DNA of 43,577 nucleotides, filler included, from Jimgerdemannia flammicorona (Eukaryota), in NCBI GenBank assembly GCA_003990765.1. It is 2 parts of 2 records of this genome, joined end to end, with 100 filler letters (N's around TTAATTAATTAA, not from the genome) between each part and the next. Parts side by side here need not be neighbours in the genome. Positions count along the whole stretch, not along the records: positions 21,841 to 43,577 come from RBNJ01001403.1; 1 more part is not named here. The stretch is one strand, 5' to 3'. Positions within the stretch are counted from its first letter, which is position 1, and each line of letters begins with the position of its first letter. Positions 6,776-43,577 of this stretch are shown here, piece after piece. The notes beneath the pieces are model-generated. The model ran no database searches. It was not told the DNA's origin and saw only the letters and a list, made by a program, of their open reading frames with translations. The translations under genes and the position numbers were made by a program.

Positions 6776-6789
6776 ACTCTCCCCTTCTT
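6776..6789 (-). promoter_or_regulatory. Gypsy polypurine tract
   Basis: Minus strand AGAAGGGGAGAGT directly before the 3' LTR. Confidence 0.9.
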
Positions 6790-10200: not shown

Positions 10201-10836
10201 GGCCAATTTCTTGAGTTGTAGCTTGTTGATGTGGGTGATCTTTGGTCCAGGGTCACTAGAGTTGAGTGTGTCTTTTTCGCCTTGTAGTTTGAAGTTGTGG
10301 TGTCCTTTCTTGATGGTCAGAGAATAGTTTACCCAATCGATCATGGGGTTCTCTTGTTTTAACCATGGAGTCCCAAGGATGATTTTATTGTCAGGAAGTG
10401 GTACAATTTGGAGGGTAACATGTACTTGGTAGTTGCCAATTCGGAAGGGTAGATTGCGGACTTCTTTGCTAATGACATGTGAGGTTCCATCAGCTGTAGC
10501 AACTGCTTGAGTTTGCTGTACTGGGGAGGTGAAGACCTTGAGTCTGTTGGCTGTCTCCTCATTGATGAAATTGTCTGAGGCACCACTGTCTATCATAATC
10601 TTGACAGGTGCTCCGTTGACAAAAGCTTTAAGGGTGAGCAGTTTGTCTGATCCAATTGTGGTGATTTTGGTTGTAGGAGCCTTTCTTCTGTTGATTCTTC
10701 TTTGAGCCAGTTCATTGACACAGGAGAAGCAATCGTCAATTATTCGGGAAGAGTACATTCCAATACCATGAGAGCATCGGCCACTTGGTACATATCCATC
10801 TTCTATCTTCTTGTAGAATTGTTCTTCTTTGCTCAC
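7203..10836 (-). pseudogene. pol: Gypsy pol: aspartic protease, RT, RNase H, integrase, chromodomain
   Basis: IDSGA (PR); [13 protein letters not shown] and YIDDI (RT); TDAS...EKEMLA...TDH (RH); H-x6-H...[19 protein letters not shown] (IN); FIGPF and EEYEVEQIL...YLVKWKGY...TWEP (chromodomain). TGA at 7696-7698 and a frameshift near 7570. Confidence 0.97.
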
Positions 10837-10860
10837 AGTAGGTTGGGCTGGGGCCTTGGT

Positions 10861-11268
10861 TGATGAGCCAAATCCTTTAGATCCTCGGATAGTGGGTAGT
10901 AGTTCAGGGACTTCCTTGATTGTCAGGGTTGACTCGATTTTTTCGAATAGGATCTGGGTGATGCAGAAGCCAATAGGGATCTTGAAGGGTGTCCAACTGT
11001 GATTTCAGATGAGGACAATGATTTCGCCTGTATAATCTTTGTCAATGATTCCTCCTTCTACTGAGAGTCCTTTCAGTGCTAGGCTGCTGCAACAGCATAT
11101 TCTTCCAACATGTCCTTCAGGGATTTGGATACTGATTCCTGTATAGACTTGTTTGACTTCTCGGTTAGAAACAGTAGCTTCTTTGGCTGCATACAGGTCA
11201 TATCCGGCTGCTTTTTGACTTCCTTTAGTTGGGGCTTTAGCAGTTTGTCTTAACTTGACAAAGTCTAG
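10861..11268 (-). pseudogene. dut: Trimeric-type dUTPase domain in frame with gag and pol
   Basis: Manual translation: AAGYDLY, GRIxxx[31 protein letters not shown] (motifs I-V); one TGA at 11005-11007, so the ORF track misses it. Confidence 0.93.
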
Positions 11269-11316
11269 TGTTCTGGTAGTCAGGTTGTTGAGGTGGTGCA
11301 GAGTGGTAATAGTTGC

Positions 11317-13311
11317 TCATGTTGCTGTTTGGGGTTTTCGGTTGGGGCAGGCACTGGCCATGTGTCCTGTCTTTCGGTAATAGAAGCATGCTCCGCTTCT
11401 TCGAAGTTCATTTCTTTCGCCTTCAGTAAGTTTCTTGAAGATACTTGGCTGAGTGGGTTCATGATTTCTGGGTATCCAAGAGGTGGATGTGGAGGGAGCT
11501 CGAGATGCTTCATGCTTGGGTTCTTCTTTCTTAGTCCAAGTCTTTTCCTTGTTGTTGAATTGTCTTCGAGGCAGAATTGGTCCAGCTGTTAGGATTCGCT
11601 TGACCATGGTCTTGATTCTTACTAGACACCATTGTTGGTGATCACAACCAACTAGGCGGCCTTGTTCTCGGATTTTTCTAGTAAGCAATTCAGGCAGTGC
11701 ATCGAATAAATGGTCTGCTCTTGTACCATTTCGTGCTTCATCGTTGGCAATATATCCTAGGCCAACAGTGTTCAGGAGTGACTCGAGTTTTGTATAGAAG
11801 GTTTCAAATTCTTCTTTGCCATGTATATCAAATTTGAGGTTGCGGAGTTTTACTCGAGATTCAGCAATCATGGTTTCGCTGTGGTATTGAGCAATCATGA
11901 GTTGTTTGAGTCCAGGGGCTACAGGATGGGCTCCATATCCTGGGGCATTGTTTGCTGCATTCTGAGCAACTACTGCAGGTTGGGTATCCCATGTGAGGGG
12001 TTTTTCAGGAAGGGTTCACCACCATTCTTCGGCAGGTCCTCGGAAGAATGTAACAACTCGGTGGACATAGGCTGTAGTTGTAGCAAAGAGTTGTTCTAGA
12101 GTGTGATCTTGATTGTTTGTCAGAACGTGGTCAGCAACTCATTCATTGGTCCATTGATTGGCTTCAAAGTTGGTGTCAACTACACTAATGAAGCTTTGGA
12201 CTTCTTGTGCAGTACTATTGAAGGTAGGTAGGCTCAGATTTTTGGTAGGTCGGGTCTGTTCGGCTAAGACAGTAATGGTTGCTGCCATTATAGCTACTTG
12301 GGCTGTGAGATCCAGAATCTGTTGGTTCGCCATGTTGATTGCTGGAGGCGGTTGGACTGCTGGTAGTGGTGTTACTGGTACTACTTGAGGTACTGGTGCC
12401 GAGTGTGATAGAGTTCTTTGGGTCTGTGTAAGCTGCTGGAGTAGTAGTTGTGGATCTGGAGTGAGGGCTTGATAGATAGCTGTTTGTTGCTGTGTAGGTG
12501 TATTCTGTCCTGATGGGTGTGTGTCTCCTTCAGTGGTGTATCTGGGATCGAATTCGGTGAGATACTTCTCCTCTTCTTCAGTTTGGTCCCCGTGTAATTG
12601 GGTTTGCTCGGCGTCAAAGTAGACAGAATCAGTTGTATATCTGATTTCAGATGGACTTAATTCAAAGTCAAGTTCAGGTTCGGTATTGGTTTCAGATTCA
12701 GGTAGGGTTATAGCAGGGCCTGCTTCAGGTTCAGGGTCAGGTAGTTGATGAAGGGTTTCTCTTGCTTCTTCTTTAAGAATATGGTGGGCCTTGCTGTTCT
12801 GGAATCGGTAGTATAGTGCGGTCTTGGTCCTGGTGCAGTGAAAGTCAGTAGAGTTGAGCCACTTGGCTACAGAGGCTTGGGCTTCGTGAGGAACTAAGGC
12901 TAGAAAGACTGCTGCTGGTTGTCCTAGGTTGCTCGGATTTGTGGAGCTGACAAAACTCTTGTTGAGAAGAGTAAAGAAGGCTTCAATAAGACCTTCTTCA
13001 TCTTGACTTGCTGGGTGTAGTGCAAGGAGTTCGGTGAATAGCGTTTCGCCTATTTGCTGGTTTAATCGGAGTACTTCTTTCTTTGAATGAAGTTTGTCCC
13101 ACTTGTTGCAGGTGTGGAGGTCAAATTGTCCTTGTATGTCAGGTTCAATTCTCTCCAGATTGTCAGATGGTTCGGATAAATTCCAGTTCAGAGGTTGGGC
13201 TTTATACCAACTTGTAGGAATTCGCAGAAGGGTTTGTAGCGGGGTGAGGAAGTGTCTTGAAGCAGAATTGGATTGTAAACCGCTGCTACCAAGTTGTAAG
13301 AGGGTTACTTT
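11317..13311 (-). pseudogene. gag: Gypsy gag with long N-terminal open frame
   Basis: Same frame as pol; LPTF capsid-like start after MANQQ (12333); degenerate zinc knuckle CFYYRKTGHMASAC; TGA stops at 12139, 12016 and 11317. Confidence 0.88.
13280..13291 (-). promoter_or_regulatory. Gypsy primer-binding site, tRNA-iMet 3'-end type
   Basis: TGGTAGCAGCGG 3 nt downstream of the 5' LTR. Confidence 0.85.
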
Positions 13312-15377
13312 TTAGGGTGACCGTTACATAGTTCTGGAAGAGTTTTCTGGATATTCTGGATATTCTGGAAGACCGTTTTCTTATGGTCAAGATCAATTTT
13401 GTATGGAGTACGTCCTCTACGCTTATTGATTTCAAGATCGGGTTGACGTCTCAACCAAAGTCCTTTTTTGGACTAGTTCTGGATGTTCAGGATCTTCCGT
13501 ATTTCAGGAAGTTCAAGAAACTAAGACCAGCTTAGTTGAATTGGCATATCGCTGCAGACAATACCCAATTAGGAAATTTTGTGATGGGGTTAGGAGTAGG
13601 ACCTAACAGAGAGCGGATTTACTTAAGAGTGGTTTGTGAGTTATGGAATAGGTTTATTTGCTATTCATGATATTGCTATACTAGGAGTATTTGTGTGAAG
13701 GGATATTGTGGGGAAGTGCTCAGGAGTTGTGTTCGGATTGTTCAAGTCTTCAAGTCTATTCGAGTCTGAGATTCTGAGGTCTGGGGGAGGGGGTATTTAT
13801 ACTAGTGGGGAACTATCTGGACTATGCTGAATATGGATGTAGCACTAAGTGCCTTGCTGAGTCGGAATGCAGTCACGTAGTACAAGTGTGATCTGACATG
13901 TCAAGAGATCGTCTGACTGCTGAGTCAGTTCACAGTCACATCGTACAAGGCTAATCTAAGTATACTATGACTGCTAGGCTATTTATGGGTTTAGGCACTA
14001 TCTGGGTAGTCTTTGATGACATCACCATCGATTGCATCATCTCTGATGAAGTAGTCATCTAGGAAGAGTGGTTCGTGGATTACTTCTCCTTGTTGGCTGA
14101 GGTAGTAATACATTGGGACTTCATCTCCATCCCACAGGATAGCATCATCTGTTTTGTATACTGGATAAGGTGTTGGTGGGCGAAGGATGGATGTACTGTC
14201 TTTGCTTTCATCGGATTCGCTGTCTGTGTACCTTCTATAGGTTACAGCACTATGAGTTGCGGGGTTATAGTATGCTGGTGGCTGTGGTTCATGTTGCTCG
14301 TACTCAGGTGGTGGAGTGGTTGGTTCGATCTCGAGGGTTGTCTGAAGGTACAGGTTGTGTTCTCCGGTCTCTTCATTGTAATTGAAGTAATCGGGGGTAA
14401 ATGCAGGTTGGTATTTGTGCCAGTGGTCATTGTCCCAATAAGTCTTGTATGCAGTTATGAACTGTTGCAAGTTCATTGGCAAGATTGGCGGAGTGATCAG
14501 GGTTGGCAGAGATCCTTGGCTAGAGGTCATATCGGCATCAGAGAGATCATTGTCTTCTGCTTCATCTTCATCGAAGTGGATTATATCGTAGATGTCCTTC
14601 ATGGCATATCCGACTTGAGGCATTTGTAGGATATAGTCATCAGGTTGCGGGAAGGTTCTGTCTGTAGTTTCGACATACTCGAGGTACTTGTGGTTGAGTT
14701 CTTGTATCATGTCATCGATTTGGCCATAGGACAGGGTAGCAACCATTTCGCTGGTAGTGACTCGGAGGCGGGGAATAAAGGTTTGTACTCATAGAAGAGT
14801 TCTCGATGTTTGCGGGCGATAAGCTTTTAGTATTGAGACATCTGGGTAATATCTGTATCATGGTGGTGTTCGACCATGTCTTCTAGGAGGTGGCCAATCT
14901 GGTAGTAGCTTGAGATTTGTCCGATTCGGTTGGCCTCGCTAAGCATGTTCAGGGCATTCCATCAGGCTTCCATGAAGTAGAGGGGTGCCAGGCTATGGAT
15001 ATTCATGAGGGGCAGAGGGGGTGTGGCTTGGTTGACAATGGCATTCCAAATGTCAGCACGGATGTAGTTGTAGATCTCAGTGATCATGTTTGTGTATTTT
15101 GGAAGTTGTAGTTATTGTTTGTTTTGGTTTTCTGATTCGACGCGTCTCGGTGCTCAGTATATATATATTTGGTCCTGATTGGTAAGGTTCCGTTTGTGTA
15201 GATCTTATGTTCCATGACTTCATATTGACTCAGCTTTATACACTGTGACTTCGGTTTGACTCAGCTTCGTGATCAAGCAGGTGATTTCCAGATTTGTTCA
15301 GAGGTCGCATGTGATTTCAGTGGCTTTGTTCAGAGGGTGACGTGTAATTTCGGTGGCTTGGAGGTTGTGCGCTTATA
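13295..15377 (-). repeat. Gypsy 5' LTR (2083 bp)
   Basis: TGTAAG...CTTATA (terminal CA mutated to TA), followed by TSD CTCTT. Confidence 0.97.
13991..14746 (-). CDS. Second copy of LTR-encoded ORF-B (251 aa)
   Basis: Near-identical to 5389-6144, uninterrupted. Confidence 0.65.
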   Translation of the reverse strand: MVATLSYGQIDDMIQELNHKYLEYVETTDRTFPQPDDYILQMPQVGYAMKDIYDIIHFDEDEAEDNDLSDADMTSSQGSLPTLITPPILPMNLQQFITAYKTYWDNDHWHKYQPAFTPDYFNYNEETGEHNLYLQTTLEIEPTTPPPEYEQHEPQPPAYYNPATHSAVTYRRYTDSESDESKDSTSILRPPTPYPVYKTDDAILWDGDEVPMYYYLSQQGEVIHEPLFLDDYFIRDDAIDGDVIKDYPDSA

Positions 15378-17703: not shown

Positions 17704-17837
17704 TGTTGTGGAATGGGGAGAAAGAAGCGAATTGTTTATTGATACTAGCTTACGCGCTTTTACGCGTGCTGATGACGTTTACAGGATGACGTAGTCAGGC
17801 TGCGCCATCGAGTTGCTATAACTAAGATATTTCAACA
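17704..17837 (-). repeat. Copia 5' LTR (134 bp)
   Basis: Matches 980-1119. Confidence 0.95.
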
Positions 17838-20800
17838 ATTCTGCACCATGAACAATTAACACCCCACACCATTTCGTAACGCAAACAACGCTGATAAACG
17901 ATTTGTAGGTCGAGAGGATATCTTGGAATAGATGCTGGCTGTAATCCATGAAACCGGTTGAAAGCCGTACGATATATTATTGCCATCGACATTGCGGGGA
18001 TTTTTCTGGCCTTGCGTCGATGGTCGGGAGCCTACGAGATAGAAAAAACAAATAAGTAACGAATAAAGAGAGGCATGTCTTGTGCGGATTTAACATAGGT
18101 ACAAGAAGTGTGGGTAGGGTGGCACGAATAAAAACTGCAAAAAAAATAATTACGGGGTATCGGATGCATGAGCACAGTGTTCCCAGTCAATTTCCGACAT
18201 GGCTCAACCAACTCGCAAGGGTCTCGTACATTCATACCCGAATAACGTGACGTAAGCTCCAAAACTACAACCCGGTTTCACCCTTACTTAAGGGGCTCAT
18301 CAGTTGGCTTTATAGTAACCCGAGACCGGTGTGAATCCATACACCGGCCACTTAGCTTTATATTTTCTTTACCAGCGATATGCAAAACCATGACGAAAAG
18401 GAGAAAACTATACTCACTTGTATCACGACCTCCCAGACCAGCAACGCTCGAGGGTGCGAGATTAGTGTCCTGCGGAGGACGAATAGCCAGCCCATTACCA
18501 AAGGTTGGCATGCCACCCGAAGGCCACCAGCCCGTCAGCCCGGATTCCATGGCCGGGCCACTATTACTTCGAATTCTTAGTGAGATAAATTTACACCTTC
18601 TGGTCCAGCGGATCTCCAGCGTAACTCTTGTCCAAGCGGCGTTGCGGAAGGAAGGCCCCGGAAGACCGTGCTGAAGAGGAGGTGCTCGCGATTTAGTGTG
18701 CGATGGGTTGGGACAGTTGTAGCGGATAAGGGTTCCAAATCTACCTGAGCTTTGGTTGACGGTCTTTCGAGTGGGTAAAGAGCATTCGCAGGGTCAAAAT
18801 AATTTTCGTTCCGAGCCCCCCGTTCTCCGATTCCCCGAAGTAAACACACCACCAGATAAGGCCTTTTTGTTTGTGTGTGACGTGAAAAATCCATGCCAAT
18901 TACGTTCACATGCTGGGCAAGAGGGTACTTATGGGTATGTGCTCGGGGGTTGCCCGAAATTCTATTTGAAGCATCGAAACAGGGACACGCTTCCAAAGAT
19001 GGTGTATCTGTATGATTTTAGTTATAGCGTTGCCATCTTGCCCTAGTATGTTCTAGTCTCATGCATTGAAGATTCGGCAGCCAGTAATTTCTGATGTGCC
19101 TCATGATAAACAAATGGGCCCATTCACCGACAAGGCGCGGTCTGAACTTGCTGGCATGCCGACCTTTTTCACGAACCCCTCACGTCCTTTGTGCTCAGAA
19201 ACACCGGCTTCTGCATTATGCGTTCCTTCGAATAAGTCCCGCTCGACAGATCGTCGGTATCCGACGTCATCTTCACCAACATAAAAAATCACGCAGAGGA
19301 ACAGGCACACGATGCCCTTGCTTCATTCCTCAACTCATTCTATCATGATTCGAACCACCAACGGTAAAAAACGGCCATCGATGCGCACATTAGATGGAAG
19401 GCCAAATATAAACACGTTCATCTAAAATTCGCCCATGTTTTCGACTGGGAAGAAAAATGCATCAAGGGCGCGGTGGAAGTTCATACCAGAGGAGTTCCCA
19501 GTCCATTTTTGTTTGCTGTGAGGTCACATTTCAAAAAAAAAAATCACACTATTTACGCGGCACAACCTGTTCTCACCAAATATATCCAGAAAAAATTCTT
19601 GTCGTGCGGGATGACTGACGCCGTTTTGGGAGCGTCTGTATACGTGGTACGTGCACATTCCGAAAATCGAAACATATTTCCCGTCTCTTCGGCAGATCGT
19701 AGATGTCGACAAAAATAGCTGGGGATAGATTGTCCGAGCACCCGTTGTCTGAGCGAAATGACAAGTCACCTTTCGTCATGCGAATAGTTGACACGACAGT
19801 CAATTGATAATGTATGGGCCATGCAGAAAACACAGCTTTCAATAAGTCCACCAAAGCGAATACACCATCGTACATCGCCACTTCCAGATCCTCCTGCAGC
19901 TACTGAGAGTGCCGTACCCGTTACTTCCAGGCAGGGCAAACTGGGACCTTCTTGGTAGAAGTATTTGATATTTCGCGCGGGCCCATTCAGCATCAAAGGG
20001 TCCCGTTGTATACTTTCGGGCCAGTCAAGCGACCGCCGCGGAGATAGGTGACCCTATGTTTATCTACATCGCATTATTCTTATGTCGAGTGATAATCGAC
20101 ATGGAGTGGATGGACAGATGCCGGGACCTTCATGGTCACCTTGGCCAAAATATCTTAAATTGTTGCCCTACGTAAATATTCTTAAATTTCTTGTGGTCAT
20201 TGACAAGAAGAGTTCATGAACTCACCGTCATAACAACTTCCAGGTATATACCCGCCACCGCCGTGAGGCACGTTAAGCTGCAGCAAGGATACTTGCCCAG
20301 GCGAGGGCATCAAGGAACAATACCGCCTGGCTCGCCCTTTCCGTGAACCACGCGTACCTTACGCCAAACACAAGCCACCTAGGACAATGTCTCGCCAGTT
20401 TACGACCAAACCACACCACATACGTCTGCTGCCGCTATGATTGCGCAAAGATCACGCAAGCGAACACACGAATAATTACTATGGTGGGTTTTGGCTGCGG
20501 TTCACCCTTGCGCATGTTCGACTATCGGTCTCACTTGTCCTCTGGTTTTATTATATGTTACATTTCGCCATTATCAGGCCTTTTTACTCCGCACACTCGA
20601 TGTACATATTTTGCTTTTCTAATTCTTCAGATTTTAGAGGCCAATTCTTATTGTTATTTCTGAGTGCGGGGCGGCAGTTATTTCAGTATCTTCTAGGTTC
20701 TGCCTTTCTTTCTTACTCGTTCGCATGTATAATTACTAATTACGTAACATTATAAAATTATATTATAATGATGACATTCATGCTTAAGCCACTTCATTTA

Positions 20801-21740: not shown

Positions 21741-21840
21741 NNNNNNNNNNNNNNNNNNNNNNNNNNNNNNNNNNNNNNNNNNNNTTAATTAATTAANNNN
21801 NNNNNNNNNNNNNNNNNNNNNNNNNNNNNNNNNNNNNNNN
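21741..21840. other. Assembly gap with artificial all-frame stop linker
   Basis: N runs around TTAATTAATTAA (21785-21796), 100 nt in total. Confidence 0.97.
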
Positions 21841-24800
21841 TTTTTGTAGTCTCTTGGACTTCACTATTTATTACCATTCTATTAGCTATAAGTACAGAAC
21901 CTCATCCCACTACCCAATCCCCCTAGAGGGACCTCTCTCCATACTCTCACACTTAAATATCATCCTATCACCCATTACTCCAACTCTCTCCTTACTCTGC
22001 CTACAAATTTTTTCTACTAATCAATATTACCTACCACTCTGCAGACTCTGTCCCAGCCACCAGCCTGTCAAAACATCCTCCATCAACCCTTTCTATCTTG
22101 ACAGCTGGTTTCCCATATCTAAATATTTTCCTTTCTCAAAAACAAATAACCAGTAATCTGCTAGCCCCACCTATACAGCCAATACTCAACCTAAAGTGAG
22201 CTACTCCTTCCCAATCCCCTCTATCAATCTATCCTTAAGATCCTCCCATTGATTCCTCTCAGCATTCCCCCTATATACAATACCCAAATGAAACCCAACT
22301 GCTAATCAAAAATCACCAAGTATCTCACACTCTCTCAGTCAATATTCTGGCATCTGCACAAACCCTCCTTTCTGCCCTACATTATAATACTCCTTACAGT
22401 CAAAACTCCTCCCCTCCACAAGATGGCCTGAGTGAAGGTTGAGCATAACATTCCTCCATCATCCCTTTCTCCACTACCTTACCAGTCACAAAGTTTGGTA
22501 GGCAACCTTCTAAGTCCCCTTTCCTCTATTATTACCCCCCCTCTACCTCAGGTTAGTTTGCTGTGCCTACATGGGCATAGTGGAAGGAGGGCAATAGTGA
22601 TGAGTTGCCCCTTTATCAGTATCTAATTGGTGTCTTCTTCACTTTTTCATGGTTTCTGGTATCTTCAGCTGCATCTGGAGTGCATTCATTTTGGTGCGGT
22701 ACCTTCTTCCTTTTGCCATCACCAACAAGGTATTGTCTCAGTATGTCTCAGACTATGTAGAGAGTTGGCTGACCTTGGGTATCAAGTGCTCAGTATAGGT
22801 TACCTACAGATCCTTGGTATCTATGGTGGAGCCCTCTGGCTTTGGCAAGCTTCCCGGTGAGCACAGTTCTAGCATAGGTGACTACTTTTCAGATATTGTC
22901 AGGATGGGAGGGGAGATGGCCATTACAGATAGGAGAAAGGGCGATAATGGTGAACCAGTAGGATACCAGGCTGGGGGTGGTCATTGGGGCTGGGGCAGGT
23001 GCTGCTTTGGTGGGGCCTTTTGATTGATGTGGTGCAGTTAGGTAGTAGGTGTCACTCTCGGCTTCTTTTGGTGGGTTGGTGGGTTAGGCCCCAGTCATCA
23101 GGGGGGGTCGGGGGGCCCAAGGCTACTCATTTCAGGCATCTTGGCTACACTCAACTGGAACCGGGTGCTGACATGACAATGTGATCAAGGCCCACAGACT
23201 TGAGTAGTGGGGTATTGGGGGTCTCCTTCCATCTCATGTGTAAGTTCTTTACTCACCTTGACTGGGAGAACCAGGCCCTACCCACCATGTTGTACTTTGA
23301 TGAGAGTTTTTCTTTGCCTGTCATTCTCTTTGGGGAGGCAGGGGCTATTCTATTCGGCTCAGACATAGCCTTGTATATACATTGGGTTCTCAGGCATGTG
23401 CTTTTGGTCATTGGCATATGGTTGGGTTTCCCCTGGTGGTAGAGAGAGCATGGTGTGCAGAATGAGGTGCAGGCCAACATAGGCCCTGCTGTGCCTGATA
23501 TAGTCAAGCTGCTGGACAATAGCTAGCCTAGGTTAATGGGGGGGCAGTACTTAGTGGGTGGTGGGGGAGGGTTTTGGCCTATATAGTCTAGGTTCCCTTC
23601 CAATAAAATTCCACAGGACATGAGTCCATTAAAAAAAAAAATAAAAAAAAAATAACATTCCTCCACAGCATATGCTATCAGACCACCCAGTACTTAGGTA
23701 GTAACTATCTCCTCACCTCCATACTCTAGGCCCAGACTCTATTTCAGTTTCACTTCTCCCCAATATCTGCTATCTACCAGCCACCAGGCCAAGCATCCTG
23801 GCCCAACCTCCTCTGGTATTTGACCCTATCTCTAATATCAAAATCCAGAAAGAGTGTATCCCCCAACAATACTCTATCCCATCTCTATATTGCCAGGTCC
23901 CAAGGCTCCTCCCCTTTATCTCCCTGCCAGTGGATTCCAATGTAGTGAGCCCCATCTACTACACCCCACCAGAAGCCCTTATACTGCATGTGCCCACTAT
24001 TTTGAAGCCCAACCAAGGACAGCCAATCTCCAGTTAAGCCTCTTGGTGAGCACCTCATCTTCCAGATCTTCTTCATCAGTGGAACCCAGCTACCACTCCT
24101 CAGTTCCCCCACTCTCTTCAGCCACCATACTCTCAAACAATGCAGTCTCTTCAGGAAGTTAACCAGCCCAAAGTCCTACTCTAGACACCAGTAATGATAA
24201 GATTTCCCAGCTAATCTGACTCCTCCTTCCCATCCAGATCCAATTTCTATCCAACTACAAAAGCCTCTTCACCACCCAGGCCAGAAAGTCCAGATGATAT
24301 ATCAGATACCACAGCTTTAGCAGTCGGTAGACATTCAAAATTGTAATATGCCCCACTAAAGAAATGTAGTAGCCTCTCCAACTCTACAGGGCCTCTCCCC
24401 AGATAGCTACTCTCTATTCCCACCAAGGTCTTGGTAGAATGGACCCATATACTAAAAGATATATACCCAAGTACCTAACAGCCTCTTCAGTAGGGACAAT
24501 TGTTACAATGACATCCCCTCCCACCAAGCCATTGCTCAATACTATTATTTTGTACTTATACCAGTTGAGTTTTGCTCCAGAATGTGCCTTGTACCACTCT
24601 ACTATTTCTCAGAGCTCCTCAATATCTGCAATTGATCTCAGGCCATTTACTATGTCATCTGCAAAGGCTCTAACTTTCCACACCACACCAAATACTAAGA
24701 GTCCAACTATCTTCTGCCAGATCTTATCCATCAAAGGCTCTAAGGATAGAGTGTACAAAATAGGTAACAGTGGGTCCTCCTGGGGAATACCCATATTCAG

Positions 24801-27800
24801 AGGGAATGCCACCCCTCTATGTCTATTATATATGAGCACCACTTGACTTCCTTCCAACAGGCTGACTATTGCCTCCCAGAATTGCTGGGGGACACCAATT
24901 CTATCTAGTACCTTTATCAGCCAGACCTGCCAAATATAGTCATAAGCCTTCTTCTGATCTAAGAAGACCATTCTCCCATCCAGTCTACAAGCACAAGCCT
25001 CTTCAATAACACTATGCACCCATGCTGTGCCATTCCTAATAAGCTGGCCCCCAATAATGTCTCACTACTCCTCTCCCAAGACTTGCTGGGCCACCTTCTG
25101 TAGTCTTGCCACCACCACCTTAGTGACCAACTTCCTGTCTATATCCAGCAGTATGATTGACCACCAGTACTTCCAGTCCTCCCTCCTACTCTTGTCCTTA
25201 AAAAGCAGTACCACCAGCCCCAGATCCTGCTCACCCACCCATCTCTCTGACTGCAGTACTAAGTTACAAAGCACCATCAACTCTACCAGCACTCTAGGGA
25301 CTTCTACCATCTTCTCCCAAAAGTCCCAGAACAGACCATCCTCTTCTGGTGCTGTACCTGGCATAGTTATGGCAAGAACCTAACAAATCTTCTCCTCTTG
25401 TACTGGCACTACCAAACTGTCCAGTCCATCTACTTATAGTGGGTGCCAATCCTCCAAAGTACATTCTATGGCAGCCTCATCAGCCCCACTCTCCTCCTCA
25501 CTCTACAAACCACTCCACCTCTCTTTCAGTGAGCCCATGATATCTTAGGAACCATGAATCAGTATACTATTGGAATCTAGGACCCCCTCTCATCTCTGCT
25601 GCACTCTCTTTGCTCTAAGGGACTCTGAAATAAACTTAGAGAGCCTCTCTCTCTCCTCCAGCCCCTACCAGTGCAGCTGTATAGCCAAACCCTATACCTG
25701 TATCTTCTCCTCCTCCCTCAACACTTATTGTAGCTCTGCAACTACTATCTTTACCTGCCTCACCCTTCAGTCCTCCATCTCCTCCAAAGCTAAGAGCTCT
25801 GCCCAATCCTCCAAAAGCTCAGCTAATCTAGCAAAGTCCAGGTCACCCTCCTTCTCCTCTGTCTTCCAGCCTCCTTTCTAGCTACACTCTAGTAGACCTT
25901 AGCAGCCTCCTTCAATCTCATCCATCAGACACTCACTGGGGCCCCCTCCTATATCTAACTCTCCATTTGCTGCCAAATGTCCTCAACTCACTTTTTCCAC
26001 AACACCTTCTCAGCCAATAAAGAGAAGTTGAGATGCCAATGTCTAGGCTCATCCCCACTCCCTCCAAAGTGACTCTGCCCCAATAGCCCACAGTGATCAG
26101 ACCCTGGACACCACTCAGCCTCCAGTGATTTCCAAACATCCAAACCCCAGTGATCTGTTGTCAATATCCAGTCAATCCTTGTCCCCAGACCATTGGTCCA
26201 GTGTGTGTAGACCCTCCTATCTCCCCAGAGTCCCCTAGCAGGATCCACTAGAGAACTTAGCCTCTCTACTTTCTCCCATAACCCCAGACCCCTGCTCTTA
26301 CTCTCAGCCCCCTGCCCTCTATCAGTCTTATTCATCTATATATCTCAGACCATATTAAAGTCCCCTCCAAGAATATCTCCTCCTGCCTCTGCAAGGGCCC
26401 CACTCTCCTGGAGACCCTTCATCCAATCCACTCTCTCACCATATATAGCAGGGCAGTAGCAGGACTCCACTGTAACTAGCTCCCAACCTGATTGAATCCA
26501 CTCTCCCCAGACCAGCCTATCTCCCCAGCTCCTCATATCTTATATCTCCCCTCTGCCTCTCTGGACCAAGATCCCAACCTTACTATTCCAAACTACTACT
26601 CCTTTCCATTCTGGCATCTATTGCAATCTGTCCAAGTTGTCTTCATATCTAACATCCTGCAAAAGAAAGAGATCAGTCTCCAGACTCTTAAGCTAAGTAA
26701 AAATATTCCAATGTTTAACCAAACCCCACAGTTAATTTAAATTTGAAGAAAAAATATTCATTGTACTATTTATAAGAAATAATATTAAGAGTCCTGCTTG
26801 CTCTCTACAACTCTATATCTATCCTTTCCTGTATCAAGTCCCCATTGTGTTCTATAGCCACCTTCTCCTCTTTAACTCTCCTTGCCTCCATTCTTCCCAG
26901 AAGTTCAGTTAGTTCCCCATTCTCTTTTTCCTCAAAATCCTTATAATACTCTAAGCAGACCTTCTGCCAGAGCTGTAATTCATAATGCTCTGCTCAACAG
27001 AAGGCAGCCTGCTCACCAGCCACCACTGTCAGCTCAGCCTCCCTCTCTTTATCAATCTCATACCCTTTCCTCTCCAAGAAAACTATAAGTACCTCCACCT
27101 TCAGTGCCTCCACTATTCTATTACCATACAGAATCCTTGCCCAATGCTCATCACTCATTACTCTCAGGTCCACTTCTCTCAACTCTTCAGCCACAAAGTT
27201 ATTCATCATCCAGCATATCTATTGTAGGTTTCCCACCTCCTTCCCCCCTGGAGTTGCTGGACTTCCTCCACCCAGCATGGACATATCTACTCCTGTACTT
27301 GTAGTCTCATCCCACCCATCCTCTGAGACATCTACCAGTTTCTTCTTGCCAGCTACCACCACTTATCCCCTCTTTGTTACCTTAGAAAATCCAAAGTATA
27401 CTTGCTGGGCACTACACATTAGCATATCCTCTACTGCCCAGCCTCTTACAGCTGATCCCCACCTAATAAGAGGAGGAGGAGTATCCTCCCAGACTTCAAA
27501 TGTACAATCCTCATATAGGTTCTTACTCAGTGCCTTCCTGGCCTCCTCTGGACCCACCTCTACAATCTCTCCACTACTGCCAGCCCAGATACTCACTTTG
27601 GCTCCTCCAGTATCCTCACCACTACTAGCAGTTCTCTTTGCCTCTCTCTCTAGTTTCACCAGTAACTCTCTCTGCTGCTTACATTCTTGAGACATCTTCC
27701 ATATCTTCTTATTCATACAGTATCAATAATCTCTATGTGCATTGACTCTACATATGTCTTCTAAGCCTTTACTCTTTACTCCACTATACTACTCTGCTTC

Positions 27801-35841: not shown

Positions 35842-37904
35842 ATCTTTAGTGGCTTCTTTGGTTTGTACTTCAACTTTTCAGACTGAGGTTTATTCACTCT
35901 TATCTCTAGGATATTTTATATAGTTGTGGTTACTACCTGGTTGCTATGTGGCTAATTATAAAAGGCTATTTATGGTAGGTATTTCTAGCTTGATATAAGT
36001 ATTCAGGTCCTGTACAAGTATTCAGATTCTATATAGATAAATATACCCTTTTTGGTATATCTGGCTAATTATATAAGTTGTTATGACAAAGTAGTCCTAG
36101 ATATCTCCAGATATGTTTAACTGTCTTTTTGTATACTTATGACTATTAAGTATTAGTTATTTTATAATATTTCTACTGCTTATCACAATATATTGGCCTA
36201 TACATATATTTATATATATAAGGTTAAGAATCCTGAATATACATTTTAATCATTCCTCAGATAGTTACTGAGATACTTTGTTTTTTGTACATATCTTACA
36301 AAGGTTATCTTCTGGATATATATATATTGATAATCTATTTCCAAGCCACTTCAGATCATTCTTTTAAGGTATAATTTGTTAATATGTCCTAAGCATTGAT
36401 ACTATATATTGGATATATCAGACATAGTTGTTATATATATATGCAGAGGCTTTCATGTCATTCCTATTTGTTATATTATTGATCATATAAAGATTGCTAT
36501 ATTTCAAGACTATTATTAGTTTATTGTCATTCAAATTATATATAGTTGTGCTCTTTGAATATATATATATCTCTTTGTTACTACAAGATATCATCTTATC
36601 TATCAAAAGAGGTTTTTACTAATTTCTAGAATATATAGTATGTCTAAGAAGATGTTAATGAGTTTTATAATATTGCTATAGAGATGTATCCCCATATTTC
36701 TCTTTTCTTGAGTATAGATGATATTGTTATCTTCTAGTTTAATAGGTATAGAGCATTCAAAATGCTTATACATAGACAATTATTCCCTATGTAGTATTAT
36801 ATATTATATGGCTTTAGAATCTATTAGCTAGATATTATTATCATTAGTAATATTAGTATTTGTAGTATATTTATCAGATGTATGACTATGTAAACTACTT
36901 GCTCTATTGGTATTTTTACTATTAGTAGTGCTGATGTTATTATTACTTTTTATCAGATAAAAAGTATTTTGCTGCTGATTAGAATTTATAGATAATAGGT
37001 TAATAGATAATGAGTTGGTAAATTTAGTAGTAATGAAACTGTTTATAGAAATATAGTTATCTATATATGTTACTTATGTGAAGAATATACTACTGCTATT
37101 AGTTTCAGTAGTATTTATATTATCATACTTCTCTTTATCTCAATAGTTCCTATACTGGCTTTTTTTATACTTATTTTTACTACTCTTTTTGTTATTTTTT
37201 CAGTGATAACAATTGTACTTCCTATATCTATACTTGCCACAGTATTCACAGTAACTATCATACTTAGTTGATTGGCTGGACTAGTTATTATATTAATTTT
37301 AAGTTTGGATTTATTAGTCTTATTATCTATACTTTTGACCTTATTTAACTGCTATATCTGCAGGACTAATAGAAGATATTTCCATCATTATCACTATCAT
37401 TTTCATAGTATATTTCCTCGTTTATACATTATTATGTTGACATAGTCTATGAGTCTGCTGCTCTTATATATATTTATAATAATATTATTATATATATTCA
37501 GAAGTGCTCTTATAATTGCTATAACCCTTTCTTCATTGCCAATACAGTCTATAGATATACTGAGAGAATTTACTTAATTTACCAGATCATTGATGTAACT
37601 GGTATATTTATAGATACTCTTCTTAGGTTTTATTTATATATTAAATAGCTGAGATTTTAGATAAAAACAATTTGATATGAATACTTACATATGATAATTA
37701 TATAGAGTTTGCTATATCTCATGAGCTATTATAGTATATATTATGAGCTTTATTTGAGAATTCAATAATATAAATATGATCTTATATAATACTTAGTAAT
37801 TATTTATGGTATCATAATCTTGAATCAGTACTTATAGCTTCATATACTCCACCAAGCTATATTTGTTAAGGAGATTTGATATGAAATATCCAAATAGTAT
37901 AATT
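35842..37904 (-). pseudogene. Decayed Copia gag-PR-IN fragment
   Basis: ~36400-37330 aligns by eye with the Copia gag/PR at ~29690-30605; integrase-like remnants at 35850-36300. Confidence 0.75.
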
Positions 37905-38412
37905 GCGGTGGAGGAAGAAGGCCCAGCGGGAGCCAAGGGAGCGAACCCAGAGCCAGTGTCAAAGCGAACGGAAGACATGTGGAAGAGCATGTATAAGGGG
38001 GACGAACAAAGAATGTAACCGAATATGCATCAGCCGTTTATTGCTATGTAAAAACGTGGTCCTTATATACAAAATACGATGTCCCAAAAGGGAGGACGTG
38101 CCACAACTCGGGGCGAACCAAATTAGGAACCACATGACCGCTGGAGATAAGCAGAGATAAAGGGGGAGCCAATCCCAGTTGCAGGATAAAAATCACAAAC
38201 AAACACAAACAAAACAAATCCAAATTGAGATTAAAAAACATCTGCAGACCCCAGAGGGGTGAGCGTGAGCGAGGGGTGAGGCCGAAATGGAGTGAGCAGC
38301 AACAAGCCCGAGCGAAGCGAGGGGCCGAAGGCAGCGGAGGGGAGCAGAGTAAGGCCGAGACCCCGGAGCGAGCGCGAGACCCCAGAGGGGGCAAGGATGT
38401 TTTTTAAATCTC
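37905..38412 (-). repeat. 3' pseudo-LTR (hairpin segment, promoter arm, start of next ORF1)
   Basis: Reverse complement of ~41626-42133; 3400-bp direct-repeat period with the arm ending at 41642. Confidence 0.88.
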
Positions 38413-40488
38413 TCCAGCAGAACCGGAGGCACCAGAAGGTGATAAAAACGCAAAACGAGAGTGATGGATTGAAGAAGAAACAGAGGGAAGACGCGAACGA
38501 GCAATCAGAGGGTGTCGGGAAAGAGATGAAAGTCCATGGCGTGAAAGAGAAGAGCGCAGGACGGTATCAGGGCGTTGGGCAACCCAGCGAGCATGATCAA
38601 ATGGTATGATGAGAATCGGGGGTGGGAAAGAAGAGGGGGTACAGAGTGGGTAAGGGGGGAGAGAGGGAAGGGAGGGGGAGTAAAGGGGAGAGAGCAGGGA
38701 AGAGCGAACAACAGACCATTCAACAGAAGCAAGCAGATCGTGAACGATAGAAATGGGGTAGGCACGACGATGGACCACGAAGTTGCTAAGAACCCGAACA
38801 GCAGACACCCAATCAGAATGATGGGAGCAGCATAATGCAAGACAATGAGCCTCACCACGAACACATTCAAGAAGAGTGTGACGGGGATGGTTGGACAAGA
38901 AGTCAGGGAACTGTTGGGAATGGGGAAACTGGGAATAAACAACAGTTCAGAAGGGAGAAAGAGAAATGGAAAGGTTCAAAAAGGGAATACTAGTCGTACC
39001 GCACACCCAAGTAATGGAGTGATGGGGAGGGTAGACGCCCAGAAACACACTAGGGATATCAATGCCAGCAACAGTGAAGACAATAAAGTCATCAATGTAT
39101 TGGCGAAAGAAGATATCCCCAGCCTGGAATGCAATGGAAAGAGGTGAAGTAATATCACGTAACGCACACAATTCATGGGCCAGGCCAACGAGGTTGGCAA
39201 GGGTGGGGGCACAATTCGTACCCATGGCAATACCAGAAGTCTGGTGAAAAGAGCCAAGGGCCGACTCAAAATAATTAGAGCCGCAGACGAGGAGCGTAAG
39301 CTCAACAATGGAAGCCAACGAAACCGGGGAGTCCGAAGGAAAAACTAAGGAACCCAAGAAGCGAAGGCAATCATCGATCTCATCAAAACGAATAGCAGTA
39401 TAGAAAGAAGAGAAGTCACCAGAGGCCAAATGAGAAAAATGGTGAACAGGCACAATGGTGGAGCAGAGAAGGGCGAGCTCCTGAGTATCACGAAGGATAG
39501 TATACTCAGGCCCAAGACGGTGTTGTAAGAGAGCCATCCAGGAGAGAAAGAAACGGGATAACCATTTCGAAATCTCGGTGGTAGGAGAACTGTAAGCAGC
39601 CATAATAGGATGCCAAGCCAAAACAGGCTTGTGAACTTTAGGAAGAGCATAGAAAACTGGAAGAGAAATGTCCAGGGAGGACAAAGAGTCCTGGAAGAAG
39701 TTAAAAAGGGGGTTCGCGAACAGGGAATCCAAAAGCGATCTAGCGTGAGCCAGAGAAACCTGAAGAAGTATGAGAACCTCATCCAATCCAAGAGCACTAG
39801 GCTCGTAAGCCACGGCTCGAAGGAGGGCAGAAAGGCCATCAAGGTAGAGTGACTTAGGAATAAGTGCAAAACCCTGATTCTTATCAGTGACTGTGAGTAA
39901 ATGCATAGGCAATTGCTTGACCGATTTAAGCGCGGTACGTATGGCACGGTCCGAAACCAAGCAAGAGCGAGCTCGTCCAGGAACGGACAGTGAGCAAGCC
40001 ATGTCGAGGAATACGCAGTGTGAAGAGACATTGGGAGGGGGGACCCAATTGCTAGGAACAAAATAGCGAGAGGGCATCTCACCACGATCTTGAAAGAAGA
40101 TAGCAAGGTCAAGAGCATGATGAAAACATGTTAGATGAGCCGGATCAGTAAAGGAGAATTGTGAGGGAGTCGCAGGAAAAACAAAGCGAGGACCCAAGGA
40201 TAAGGCAAAGACTTGAAGGGGAGAAAGGGGGCAGTCAGCCAAAGAAAAAGGAGGAGACAAAAGTGTTCCAAGAGAAGAATAAACCCGAAAATTCGGGACA
40301 AGCAACTGGGAAAGGCGAAGGGGGGACAATATGAGGAACCACTCAGAGCGCACCAGAAGTGACGATGGAATCCGAGAAGGGACAGGGACACTGGGGGAGA
40401 ACCATGCCGGGGGAAAGTTTAAGAGCAGGAGGCCTTCCCCTTCCCTCTGACTTTTTTTGAAGGTGGCGAGCCTGATGAGCGGGAACAC
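38404..40488 (-). pseudogene. Penelope-like reverse transcriptase (ORF2), one in-frame TGA
   Basis: LSLGPRF, FYALPKVHK...WHPI...SPT, GDFSSFYTAI, GIAMGTNCAPTLANL, YIDD, IPFLNL, SNHPRH...GE; ORFs 38947-40488 and 38404-38898 are in one frame, split by TGA at 38947-38949. Confidence 0.92.
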
Positions 40489-41378
40489 ACCCCGTCAGAG
40501 TGCCAGACCTTGCGGCCACAGGCTTTCGTGCAGCCCTTACATTCAGGGGCACGGGTGGAGGAGGCGGAGGAGGAACCGGCAGAGGAGGCCGAAGGCGAGC
40601 GAGCAGCCGAAGGGGCAGTAGTGCGAGGAACACCACCATGAGGACAGACAGACTTGGCCGGGTGCCAGTAGGCACGGTGGAGGCGGCCGGAGCAGACAGC
40701 GCAAGGCCAGGCCCTGACGGGGCAAGAACCAAGTTGGCGGCCATGCTTGGGGGCAGGGGGAATAGAGGAGGAAGCCTTGGCGAGGGAGGGGGACCGGGAA
40801 GAGGCCGACGAAGCCTGGTTGGGCTTGGCAGGGGTCTTGGCGGGGGTCTTGGAGGGGGCCTTGGTGGTGGCGGCGGCGAAGGAATGAACCTCAGCACGAG
40901 CAGCAGCACGAGCCTCGGTGCAGATGGCCTCGGAGACCGAAACCTCAGGAGAGGCAGGCAGGGGAGCAGTGGCGGCAGCGCGAGCAGTGGTGGCATGAAC
41001 CTCTTCAGAGAGGGCTTGGCGGCGGGCCTCAGGGAGAACAGAGTAGCAGACGGTGGGCAGAGCGATGACGTCGATGTCATGGCGGAGATGAGCCTCCTTG
41101 GCAGAGAGGGCAAGAACCAACCGGAACTGAGAGAGGAGCGGACGACCAGAAGGATGAAGGTCCAGGGGGAGAGAGAGGATGGCAGAAGAGACGTAGGTCT
41201 TGAAGGAGACAGTGGCAGGGGTGAAGGCAGGGGGAGGGGGAGGAGGAAGTACCTCATCCATGAGCTCGTCAATGAGGACGGAGGCCCCGAGGGCAGGCAG
41301 TACAGCAGCAGAGGAAGAAGGCCCAGCAGGAGCCAAGGGAGCGAACCCAGAGCCAGTGTCAAAGCGAATGGAAGACAT
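40419..41378 (-). CDS. PLE ORF1, internally deleted copy (319 aa)
   Basis: Ala/Ser/Pro-rich, two Cys/His clusters, basic C-terminus; overlaps ORF2. Confidence 0.8.
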   Translation of the reverse strand: MSSIRFDTGSGFAPLAPAGPSSSAAVLPALGASVLIDELMDEVLPPPPPPAFTPATVSFKTYVSSAILSLPLDLHPSGRPLLSQFRLVLALSAKEAHLRHDIDVIALPTVCYSVLPEARRQALSEEVHATTARAAATAPLPASPEVSVSEAICTEARAAARAEVHSFAAATTKAPSKTPAKTPAKPNQASSASSRSPSLAKASSSIPPAPKHGRQLGSCPVRAWPCAVCSGRLHRAYWHPAKSVCPHGGVPRTTAPSAARSPSASSAGSSSASSTRAPECKGCTKACGRKVWHSDGVCSRSSGSPPSKKVRGKGKASCS

Positions 41379-41642
41379 GTGGAAGAGCGTGTATAAGGGG
41401 GATGAACAAAGAATGTAACTAAATATGCATCAGCCATTTATTGCCACGTAAAAACGCGGTCCTTATATACAAAATACGACGTCCCAAAAGGGAGGATGCG
41501 CCACAACTCGGGGCGAACCGAATTAGGAACCACATGACCGCCAGAGATAAGCGGAGATAAAGGGGGAGCCAATCCCAGTTGCAGGATAAAAATCACAAAC
41601 AAACACAAACAAAACAAATCCAAATCGAGATTAAAAAACATC

Positions 41643-41795
41643 CTTGCCCCCTCTGGGGTCTCGCGCTCGCTCCGGGGTCTTGGCCTTACTCCGCTCCCCT
41701 CCACTGCCTTCGGCCCCTCGCTTCACTCGGGCTCGCTGCGGCTCACTCCGTTTCGGCCTCACCCCTCGCTCGCGCTCACCCCTCCGGGGTCTGCA
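41643..41795. other. 153-nt asymmetric spacer at the centre of the large inverted repeat
   Basis: Reverse complement of 38243-38395; bounded by TTAAAAAACATC / GATGTTTTTTAA. Confidence 0.9.
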
Positions 41796-41968
41796 GATGT
41801 TTTTTAATCTCGATTTGGATTTGTTTTGTTTGTGTTTGTTTGTGATTTTTATCCTGCAACTGGGATTGGCTCCCCCTTTATCTCCACTTATCTCTGGCGG
41901 TCATGTGGTTCCTAATTCAGTTCGCCCCGAGTTGTGGTGTGTCCTCCCTTTTGGGACATCGTATTTTG

Positions 41969-41975
41969 TATATAA
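41969..41975 (+). promoter_or_regulatory. Putative TATA box of PLE ORF1 (mirror copy at 41463-41469 on minus)
   Basis: TATATAA about 85 nt upstream of the MSS start (42060), retained in all three arm copies. Confidence 0.55.
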
Positions 41976-42059
41976 GGACTGCGTTTTTACATGGCAATAA
42001 ACGGCTAATGCATTTTCGGTTAAGTTCTTTGTTCGTCCCCCTTATACATGCTCTTCCAC

Positions 42060-43277
42060 ATGTCTTCCGTTCGCTTTGACACTGGCTCTGGGTTCGCTCC
42101 CTTGGCTCCCGCTGGGCCTTCTTCCTCCGCTGCTGTACCGCCTGCCCTCGGGGCCTCCGTCCTCATTGACGAGCTCATGGATGAGGTACTTCCTCCTCCC
42201 CCTCCCCCTGCCTTCACCCCCGCCACTGTCTCCTTCGAGACCTACGTCTCTTCTGCCATCCTCTCTCTCCCCCTGGACCTTCGTCCTTCTGGTCGTCCGC
42301 TCCTCTCTCAGTTCCGGTCAGTTCTTGCCCTCTCTGCCAAGGAGGCTCATCTCTGCCATGACGTCGACGTCGTCGCTCCGCCCGCCGTCTGCTACTCTGT
42401 TCTCCCTGAGGCCCGCCGCCAAGCCCTCTCCGAAGAGGTTCGTGCCGCCACTGCTGCCACCAAGCTCGCTGCCGCTGATGCTGCCGCTGCTTCCGCCGCC
42501 ACCACCTCCGCCTCCTTCCACCATGCCTGTGCCGCTTTCGTGACCTTTGCCTCCTCCCGCCTTTTGGATGCTGCCCACTTCTGTGGCTTCACCATCCATG
42601 AGGTTCCTTCTGTCACTGCCGACATCGATGCTGTGCGTTGTTTCCTCCTCACTGGCACTTCTCTTGTTGCTCGCCTTCACGAGCAGGAGTCATCACGTGC
42701 TGCCGCCACTGCTCGCGCCACCGCCACTGCTCCCCTGCCTGCCTCTCCCGAGGTTTCGGTCTCCGAGGCCATCCGCGCCGAGGCTCGTGCTGCTGCTCAT
42801 GCTGAGGTTCGTTCCTTCGCTGCCGCTACTGCCAAGGCCCCCTCCAAGACCCCCGCCAAGACCCCCGCCAAGCCCAACCAGGCTTCATCGGCCTCTTCCC
42901 GGTCCCCCTCCCCTGCCAAGGCTTCCTCCTCTATTCCCCCTGCCCCCAAGTGTGGCCGCCAACTTGGTTCTCGCCCCGTCAGGGCCTGGCCTTGCGCTGT
43001 CTGCTCCGGCCACCTCCACCGTGCCTACTGGCACCCGGCCAAGTCCGTCTGTCCTCATGGTGGTGTTCCTCACGCTGCTGCCCCTTCGGCTGCTCACTCG
43101 CCTTTGGCCTCCTCTGCCGGTTCCTCCTCTGCCTCCTCCACCTGTGCCCCTGAATGTAAGGGCTGCACGAAAGCCTGTGGCCGCAAGGTCTGGCACTCTG
43201 ATGGGGTGTGTTCCTGCTCGTCGGGCTCGCCACCTTCAAAAAAAGTCAGAGGGAAGGGGAAGGCCTCCCGCTCTTAA
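42060..43277 (+). CDS. PLE ORF1, full-length copy (405 aa from MSSVRF)
   Basis: Intact ORF homologous to 40419-41378 plus 86 aa; followed by the RT N-terminus (LSLGPRF) to the window end. Confidence 0.82.
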   Translation: MSSVRFDTGSGFAPLAPAGPSSSAAVPPALGASVLIDELMDEVLPPPPPPAFTPATVSFETYVSSAILSLPLDLRPSGRPLLSQFRSVLALSAKEAHLCHDVDVVAPPAVCYSVLPEARRQALSEEVRAATAATKLAAADAAAASAATTSASFHHACAAFVTFASSRLLDAAHFCGFTIHEVPSVTADIDAVRCFLLTGTSLVARLHEQESSRAAATARATATAPLPASPEVSVSEAIRAEARAAAHAEVRSFAAATAKAPSKTPAKTPAKPNQASSASSRSPSPAKASSSIPPAPKCGRQLGSRPVRAWPCAVCSGHLHRAYWHPAKSVCPHGGVPHAAAPSAAHSPLASSAGSSSASSTCAPECKGCTKACGRKVWHSDGVCSCSSGSPPSKKVRGKGKASRS

Positions 43278-43577
43278 ACTTTCCCCCGGCGTGGTTCTCC
43301 CCCGGTGTCCCTGTCCCTTCTCGGATTCCGTCGTCGCTTCTGGTGCACCCTGAGTGGTTCCTCATGTTGTCCCCCCTTTGCCTTTCCCAGTTGCTTGTCC
43401 CGAATTTTCGGGTTTATTCTTCTCTTGGAACACTTTTGTCTCCTCCTTTTTCTTCGGCTGACTGCCCCCTTTCTCCCCTTCAAGTCTTTGCCTTATCCTT
43501 GGGTCCTCGCTTTGTTTTTCCTGCAACTCCCTCACAATTCTCCTTTACTGATCCGGCTCGTCTAACACGTTTTCGTC

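Follow-up and report, generated by a model that had tools for sequence, protein, structure and literature searches.

An endonuclease-less Penelope-like element family in Jimgerdemannia flammicorona, with hairpin-centred palindromes that may arise by priming from both ends of chromosome breaks

In canonical, endonuclease-bearing Penelope insertions among the Penelope-like elements (PLEs), two direct pseudo-long terminal repeats (pLTRs) are accompanied by an inverted one, palindromes occur at the junction, and self-priming has been proposed (PMC3846280). Both the head-to-head layout and the self-priming idea are already in print. An inverted 5' copy has been called typical, while endonuclease-deficient (EN-) PLEs are said to be generally restricted to chromosome ends and some of their lineages must find other primers; the origin of the pLTRs and of the inverted ends is described in the same text as undefined (PMC8557442). 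Fungal EN-deficient PLEs have been said not to share the head-to-head organization (PMC3846280), and the telomeric Coprina and Terminons have been described (PMC13159263, PMC6431247). With a purified Penelope-type protein, which has been modelled as a dimer, both strands of the target are extended from one and the same site inside the RNA; these in vitro experiments do not reach second-strand synthesis or joining (PMC11167929). For L1, twin priming with microhomology is established, and annealing of complementary DNAs (cDNAs) has been described (PMC11702581). Here, we analyzed a stretch of 43,577 nucleotides from Jimgerdemannia flammicorona (GCA_003990765.1), referred to as the window, which ends in a head-to-head palindrome. 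This palindrome is the centre of an endonuclease-less PLE with hundreds of copies in the genome. We consider it probable that the best explanation for these copies is priming at both ends of a break, followed by an optional template jump and annealing of the 2 cDNAs at a hairpin. What is new is the dispersal without a nuclease, a junction map made helix by helix, and evidence for two primed cDNAs.

The assignment as a PLE is based on the second of two open reading frames (ORFs), ORF2, which encodes a reverse transcriptase (RT). The motifs DKNLG, LPKxHK, GxAMG, and YIDD are conserved across 76 aligned ORF2 proteins, the structure model of the protein had a mean predicted local distance difference test score (pLDDT) of 81, and its six best fold matches in the PDB were telomerases. 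The pLTRs are present in both direct and inverted arrangement, as in the Penelope-like layout, and a DIRS/Ngaro identity was ruled out by the RT motifs and the fold. Neither ORF1 nor ORF2 showed a nuclease match in Pfam at E-values up to 1; ORF2 ends approximately 90 aa past the thumb helices, without a nuclease match there. No relatives of ORF1 were found by sequence among 8,000 scored candidates and its structure-atlas matches were weak (all <0.85), so that a nuclease of unknown fold in ORF1 could escape detection. The hammerhead core CTGANGA was absent from both strands of the family consensus, and Rfam gave nothing better than an E-value of 4.5 over positions 37000-43577. Tandem TTAGGG-type telomeric units were found in 0 of 79 loci and not in the consensus, a search by which an unusual host repeat could be missed, while host DNA flanks both sides in 49 loci, indicating interstitial insertions. 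The genome contains 34 GIY-YIG matches, of which 12 were checked; none of these adjoins a Penelope-type RT, and a nuclease-bearing helper PLE was not seen beside them. GIY-YIG-like frames occur several per contig at L127, L130, L131, and L137 (G000:C509), and on C6559, C1998, and C17552.

The sole named close relative of the element is a partial protein from the fungus Racocetra fulgida (36% identical), which together with the CpG decay points to a fungal host. A single-protein query of metagenomes returned no close relative, and a five-sequence alignment query returned 43 distant loci (22-30% identity). None of these 43 loci, most of them shorter than 5 kb, contained a head-to-head palindrome centred on a hairpin. 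Twelve of them (within L139-L181) have identical first and last 60-127 bases, as circular or collapsed tandem units of approximately 3-5.3 kb, and the contigs L165 and L166 are perfect 3,196-bp tandems. A loose hammerhead pattern was matched in 13 of the 43, a count with no control comparison.

Within the window, the arms 40119-41642 and 41796-43577 are inverted copies of each other; aligned globally, they match at 1,445 positions and differ at 79 (77 transitions and 2 transversions), with a single gap of 258 bp. The arm at 38243 is followed by the reverse complement of a GC-rich spacer, and the arm at 41643 by the spacer itself, while both central sides read GAGATTAAAAAACATC. In these respects, the preliminary description of the locus was accurate. 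Its 12-bp stem with an extra base is a variant seen in the left copy of the window and in none of the other 3' copies compared. Across the family, a closing stem of 15 bp encloses a spacer of 151 nt, rather than the 153 nt described. The minus strand of 37908-41643 holds a whole unit, consisting of an arm, ORF1 (~404 aa), the overlapping ORF2 (-1 frame relative to ORF1; 696 aa between stops where the copy is open), the stem, the spacer, and a further arm. The unit length of the element is 3,658 bp. As contig C1403 ends at window position 43577, the right arm is cut there and its full length lies beyond the contig; the insertion is most likely an 8.1-kb palindrome, corresponding to one jump per side in the scheme proposed below.

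A palindrome in a fragmented assembly (35,354 contigs), with a contig break inside its right arm, could be an assembly or amplification chimera, or a chance inverted duplication that followed the insertion. Neither is credible to any real degree here. At least 184 centres in the genome share the same axis, and insertion flanks join into plausible empty sites. Moreover, CpG decay differs between the arms, and as the arms decayed separately, an assembly chimera is very unlikely, in agreement with the preliminary description. The junction of the 258-bp deletion had one match in the genome, the left arm of the window itself, which also rules out a heritable deletion allele.

The extent of the family was estimated by exact-pattern searches of the genome, the counts of which are lower bounds because of CpG decay. 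The stem together with the start of the spacer was matched 384 times (reversed control: 0). RT-side junctions of stem and spacer were found 247 times, and junctions between inverted arm and spacer, representing centres joined at the 15-bp stem, 166 times. In 17 deeper centres, the 5' side of the spacer was replaced by the complement of its 3' side, and one centre, L125 (G000:C19583), had the opposite, reciprocal polarity. The preliminary description had named recurrence of the breakpoint at this stem as support for its model, and the breakpoint does recur, with 166 junctions at the outer stem, 17 at inner helices, and 1 reciprocal. We also examined 79 long stretches. Nineteen of these surrounded the best matches, and of the other 60, 58 lay around sites among the first 100 listed stem/spacer matches; after removal of duplicates, they yielded 92 scored centres (78 standard and 14 deeper). 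The commonest standard centre is asymmetric, with a short inverted arm on one side and a full unit on the other (52/78); the spacer is in sense orientation to the full unit in 44 of these, including L125, and flipped in 8. Fourteen other standard centres continue on both sides, 8 were unclassed, and 4 end on both sides: L005, a clean solo palindrome; L044 and L047, with extra arm pieces; and L094, a mis-called common form. Solo, short-armed, full, and tandem forms all have a common centre and end site. Divergence among copies is mostly C-to-T at CpG (1,680 of about 3,000 changes in 15 units).

True spacer isomers, or flip/flop, therefore exist in the genome, though the window's own evidence does not show them. 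The claim that both isomers occur in this one insertion fails as an argument, because any full palindrome shows both orientations: in all 8 complete 8.1-kb palindromes (L041, L051, L060, L070, L072, L078, L083, and L102), the spacer at the centre runs parallel to the terminal spacer on one side and antiparallel to that on the other. What looked like a four-unit tandem on C765 was resolved as two neighbouring insertions. The reciprocal centre L125 resembles the product of a flipped template, in which case flips would be heritable. Local arrays of arm pieces are present at L044 (G000:C7023), L050, L057, L092, L105, and L107, each ending at the fixed site; they restart at internal positions, as if by repeated template jumps in one event.

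Both ends of the insertions lie at one site, 336 nt into the arm, where 79 of 83 distal arms end. Of the 44 inverted ends, 38 keep the last base, a C, as do 74 of the 79 distal ends; the next flanking base is T in 31 of 44 inverted and 54 of 79 distal ends (background 0.31), with further enrichment of G, C, and T. The boundary is sharp towards the element and soft towards the flank, which at both kinds of end matches the continuation of the element above background for up to four more bases. With this pattern, both insertion ends look like primed starts. Paralogous empty sites were found for 9 of 40 elements; 8 lack 2-24 bp and 1 is flush, and a target-site duplication was found in 0 of the 9. 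In line with this, 41 of 49 elements showed no flank match of 4 bp or more, as in shuffles (881/980). Deletion of target DNA marks nuclease-independent L1 insertion at breaks (PMC1920257) and is the change most often seen where telomerase has inserted interstitially (PMC2246262). The target of the insertions L058 and L100 is a repeated family of an AT-rich inverted repeat, a copy of which is found at window positions 1559-2087 (232-nt arms, 84%).

The centre of the insertions was mapped onto the predicted fold of the spacer, a rod with the 15-bp stem as its closing helix (z-scores for the hairpin of -4.5 and -6.2 against 200 shuffles). Every one of the 15 deeper junctions examined lies within one of four spacer helices: CCCC (4), GGGGT (5, one of them one base off register), GCGC (4), and GGCC (2). 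The remaining two of the 17 read as GGCC and GGGGT from the pattern listing; as the search pattern admitted near-normal spacer lengths only, junctions far out of register would be missed. The polarity of the deeper junctions (17 versus 1) is that of a cDNA entering the hairpin from the arm. We conclude that the inversion point is programmed by the hairpin.

These junctions are also what would be expected if a single target-primed cDNA folded back at the stem and primed its own second strand, which would usually stop at +336, at a bound protein or RNA block, or run to the end. This snap-back at the target is close to the self-primed fold-back put forward in the preliminary description, of which the junction at the hairpin and the single source lineage (see below) hold up, while the asymmetry, the primed-looking ends, and five discordant insertions speak against it. 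In its favour, the junctions fall on hairpin helices with the predicted polarity, and the fold of the cDNA strand is more stable than that of the sense strand (-41.3 versus -35.9 kcal/mol as DNA). The spacer is in sense orientation to the long arm in 44 of the 52 asymmetric centres, which also fits. However, an extra rule is needed for the second strand to stop at the very base where the first strand started, with the same microhomology, and the 8 flips are not given directly but would have to come from flipped templates or from later recombination between the arms. Together with the marker evidence described below, this makes snap-back a serious but unlikely account.

In the two-ended scheme that we favour, an element without a nuclease would repair pre-existing double-strand breaks. 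Each of the two 3' ends at the break would pair with element RNA over 1-4 bases at the fixed +336 site inside the arm and there prime a minus-strand cDNA, probably on two RNAs from one source locus. Each cDNA would copy the arm and then meet the hairpin at the 5' terminus of the RNA, from where it may jump to the 3' repeat and copy the whole unit, such that the pLTRs are remade from one template. The self-complementarity of the hairpin would then allow the two cDNAs to pair head to head, usually through the outer 15-bp stem and sometimes through an inner helix. Without a jump, the product would be a solo palindrome of 823 bp; a single jump would result in the common form of 4.5 kb, and jumping on both sides in the palindrome of 8.1 kb. 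Whichever cDNA supplies the spacer would set its orientation, flip or flop. A single rule of two-ended priming is thereby able to yield the solo, short-armed, full, and flipped forms. Whereas the anatomy, the junction map, the precise ends, the target deletions, and the shared haplotypes are observed, the RNA boundaries and each enzymatic step, from priming and the jump to annealing on two templates, are inferred from the products.

Sequence variants within insertions bear on the number of templates. At 16 of the 17 loci with both body orientations, the left and right bodies have 6-47 variants in common and disagree at two markers or fewer (no variants are present at the 17th), and the halves of the window insertion share 9 variants over 1,201 bp, none discordant. 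The halves of one insertion derive from one source lineage. Across 34 three-arm elements, 48 non-deamination variants are common to all three arms, from which it follows that the repeats are remade from one template, as LTRs are. Sharing between two arms was observed 9 times for the inverted and 5' arms, 5 times for the 5' and 3' arms, and never for the inverted and 3' arms, an apparent inverted and 3' marker in L081 having been ruled out as an alignment effect. The commonest of these classes is the one that snap-back allows. The distribution as a whole is the one expected for two RNAs, and self-copying forbids the 5' and 3' class. In L084 and L100, a 2-bp deletion is present in the 5' and 3' arms and absent from the inverted arm; L055 carries a T>A change with the same distribution, and in the window a T>A is common to the two left arms and missing from the right arm. 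L041, a full palindrome, has one terminal repeat that departs at two markers from its three other arms. The patterns in these five insertions should not occur if one arm had been copied from the other, and under snap-back they would be impossible without conversion. Flipped centres were no more decayed at CpG than the others (median 0.23 versus 0.27, p = 0.74; 8 and 43 copies). Flips accumulating with age were thus not seen, which speaks against slow inversion after insertion, although with 8 flips the power is low.

A different source for the second template would be an opposite-strand transcript, made from a bidirectional promoter in the palindrome. The sense RNA would then comprise the whole unit and the antisense RNA the spacer and inverted arm, and the two cDNAs, each primed from one break end, would be fully complementary over the spacer and anneal there. 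Such a system would account for the 44:8 bias in spacer orientation and for insertions whose inverted arm differs from the other two, and bidirectional transcription has been suggested for Penelope pLTRs (PMC3846280). The inverted arm would, however, drift as a separate lineage, yet the arms nearly always share one haplotype out of the many that the family contains, and inner-helix junctions would not be produced. We therefore regard this variant as improbable.

Several observations weigh against two-ended priming on sense RNA. The helix map and its polarity fit an intramolecular fold-back equally well, because pairing in cis and pairing in trans involve identical base pairs, and the sharing of haplotypes between halves (16/17 loci) is likewise predicted by snap-back. 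A symmetric model predicts about equal spacer orientations, whereas 44 and 8 were seen. Some of the empty sites lack the "GA" expected from primer pairing. In addition, 4 of the 5 discordant insertions hinge on one hypervariable T-run (arm positions 219-222), so that the discordance could stem from recurrent change, or from gene conversion in a family of hundreds of copies. Finally, given the 34 GIY-YIG matches in the genome, a nuclease may act in trans.

The T-run itself lies approximately 11 nt after an AATAAA motif and varies stepwise in all arm copies (arm positions 202-222; window 41996-42016). The variants observed were TTTT (167), ATTT (50), AATT (34), TATT (5), CTTT (3), TT (2), and AT (2). 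This variation could be a footprint of template jumps at the poly(A) junction.

Imperfect palindromes in two orientations, like that of the spacer here, are a feature of the flip/flop ends of parvoviruses. A hairpin-ended linear DNA and rolling-hairpin synthesis had been suggested in the preliminary description; a free duplex that replicates with such ends and is later captured could produce the full 8.1-kb palindromes, both spacer orientations, and some of the tandem units. The dissimilarities are substantial, however. No HUH/Rep nickase domain was found in either ORF, and the insertions end 336 nt from the hairpin, which is internal and never terminal. A hairpin duplex opened by replication would give symmetric products, whereas the asymmetric form is the commonest (52/78). 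The two isomers are also unequal in number, and none occurs in the 3' repeat, where 0 flipped spacers were found behind the RT gene against 247 normal ones. Replication of this kind is accordingly a very remote prospect.

Compared with the EN-bearing Penelope elements, of which Pen2a_Av, Pen2, and Pen3a of Adineta vaga are examples (PMC3846280, PMC8557442), the family shares two direct pLTRs with an adjacent inverted one, a pLTR that includes the first codons of an ORF, and a palindrome at the inverted junction (PMC3846280). Unlike those elements, it comprises two ORFs without a GIY-YIG domain in hundreds of copies, and its insertions are accompanied by small target deletions rather than 8-10-bp duplications (PMC3846280). 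Its 15-bp stem closes a 151-nt hairpin, as opposed to a palindrome of 18-38 bp, and both of its ends lie at one site, without the optional 30-40-bp tail of Penelope (PMC3846280). With Coprina and Athena, compared by features (PMC8557442, PMC13159263, PMC6431247), it has in common a telomerase-like RT with DKN and thumb and no nuclease, an upstream ORF1 that overlaps the RT frame, and priming aided by short target pairing. In contrast to them, the family is interstitial and head-to-head, with no telomeric repeat at 79 loci and no hammerhead core in its consensus.

The Poseidon element PAc of Anolis carolinensis offers a biochemical parallel, with a fixed internal start shortly into the ORF, extension of both target strands from that start, and a predicted dimer; unlike the family, PAc cleaves the target itself, possesses a hammerhead as well as two start sites, and is reported to begin with no homology to the cut DNA (PMC11167929). 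As in L1 twin priming and endonuclease-independent L1 insertion (PMC11702581, PMC1920257), both ends of the break would prime, microhomology is found at the inversion, and target DNA is deleted. In L1, however, the second priming site and the junction are variable accidents, while here both are fixed by the element and belong to the normal route. In the literature, we found neither an application of twin priming to PLE pLTRs nor dispersed head-to-head EN-less PLEs with mapped junctions in fungi, although supplements and older reviews could contain either.

The family constitutes a natural population of products with one start site, one joint, and internal markers, which turns the question of the pLTRs into one of one template versus two. 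It also indicates that neither the head-to-head layout nor genome-wide spread needs a fused nuclease or telomeres. Tentatively, and with less than even confidence in the proposal as a whole, we suggest that an RT that is a sister of telomerase and lacks a nuclease may have colonized hundreds of internal sites as it healed double-strand breaks from their two ends, with two cDNAs from one RNA site, a jump resembling that of strong-stop DNA by which the terminal repeats are remade, and an element-encoded hairpin serving as a programmed joint with flip/flop. Chromosome breaks would then be the normal point of entry for an enzyme related to telomerase. If true, the inverted pLTR typical of all Penelope elements would be a second primed cDNA, for which no endonuclease is needed.

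The features of the window insertion are as follows. On the minus strand, the 336-nt terminal arm of the 3' pLTR (37908-38243) forms the left end of the insertion, at the fixed end site of the family. It is adjoined by the 3' copy of the 151-nt GC-rich spacer, a rod-like imperfect hairpin (38244-38394), and by the left strand of the 15-bp closing stem (38395-38409), which overlaps the RT stop codon and carries a window-specific variant. ORF2 (38404-40494) encodes the Penelope-type RT, with DKN motif, core RT, and thumb and no endonuclease domain; a stop at 38947-38949 breaks it here, while L045 and L041 each hold an open copy of 696 aa. ORF1 of the left unit (40419-41378) contains the in-frame 258-bp deletion, which lies between short direct repeats (near 40982) and is unique to this arm. 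The inner arm of the left unit (41308-41643) ends in the stem at 41629-41643.

The central spacer (41644-41794, plus strand) forms the axis of the palindrome and is in sense orientation relative to the right unit, which continues on the plus strand. Its inner arm (41795-42130) begins with the stem (41795-41809), contains AATAAA at 41996-42001, and is read through at the end site, 42130. The adjoining ORF1 (42060-43277) is alanine/proline-rich, with two CxxC..H..C-like clusters and no family match, and retains the 258 bp deleted from the left arm (42456-42713). The start of ORF2 (43202-43577) is cut by the contig end. In both units, an A-run (40449-40463, minus strand; 43233-43247, plus strand) lies where ORF1 overlaps with ORF2 in the -1 frame, and it is followed by a predicted stem-loop (43233-43290 with the A-run, plus strand). 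The A-run and stem-loop form a candidate programmed -1 frameshift site, which would yield an ORF1-RT fusion.

Elsewhere, the window spans contigs C1402 and C1403, joined by a gap of Ns with TTAATTAATTAA filler at 21741-21840. A Ty3/gypsy-type LTR element lies on the minus strand at approximately 4692-15271, with long direct repeats 8,602 bp apart (97%). It codes for protease, RT, RNase H, and integrase, with a weak dUTPase match (E-value 0.0014) just upstream of the protease. Short direct repeats beginning with TGTTG, at 980-1133 and 17704-17851, lie 16.7 kb apart, are up to 99% alike, and enclose the gypsy element; they are probably the LTRs of an outer element in which it is nested. Finally, a remnant of a LINE-type RT (RVT_1, E-value 2.9e-9) is located at 24612-25379 on the minus strand.

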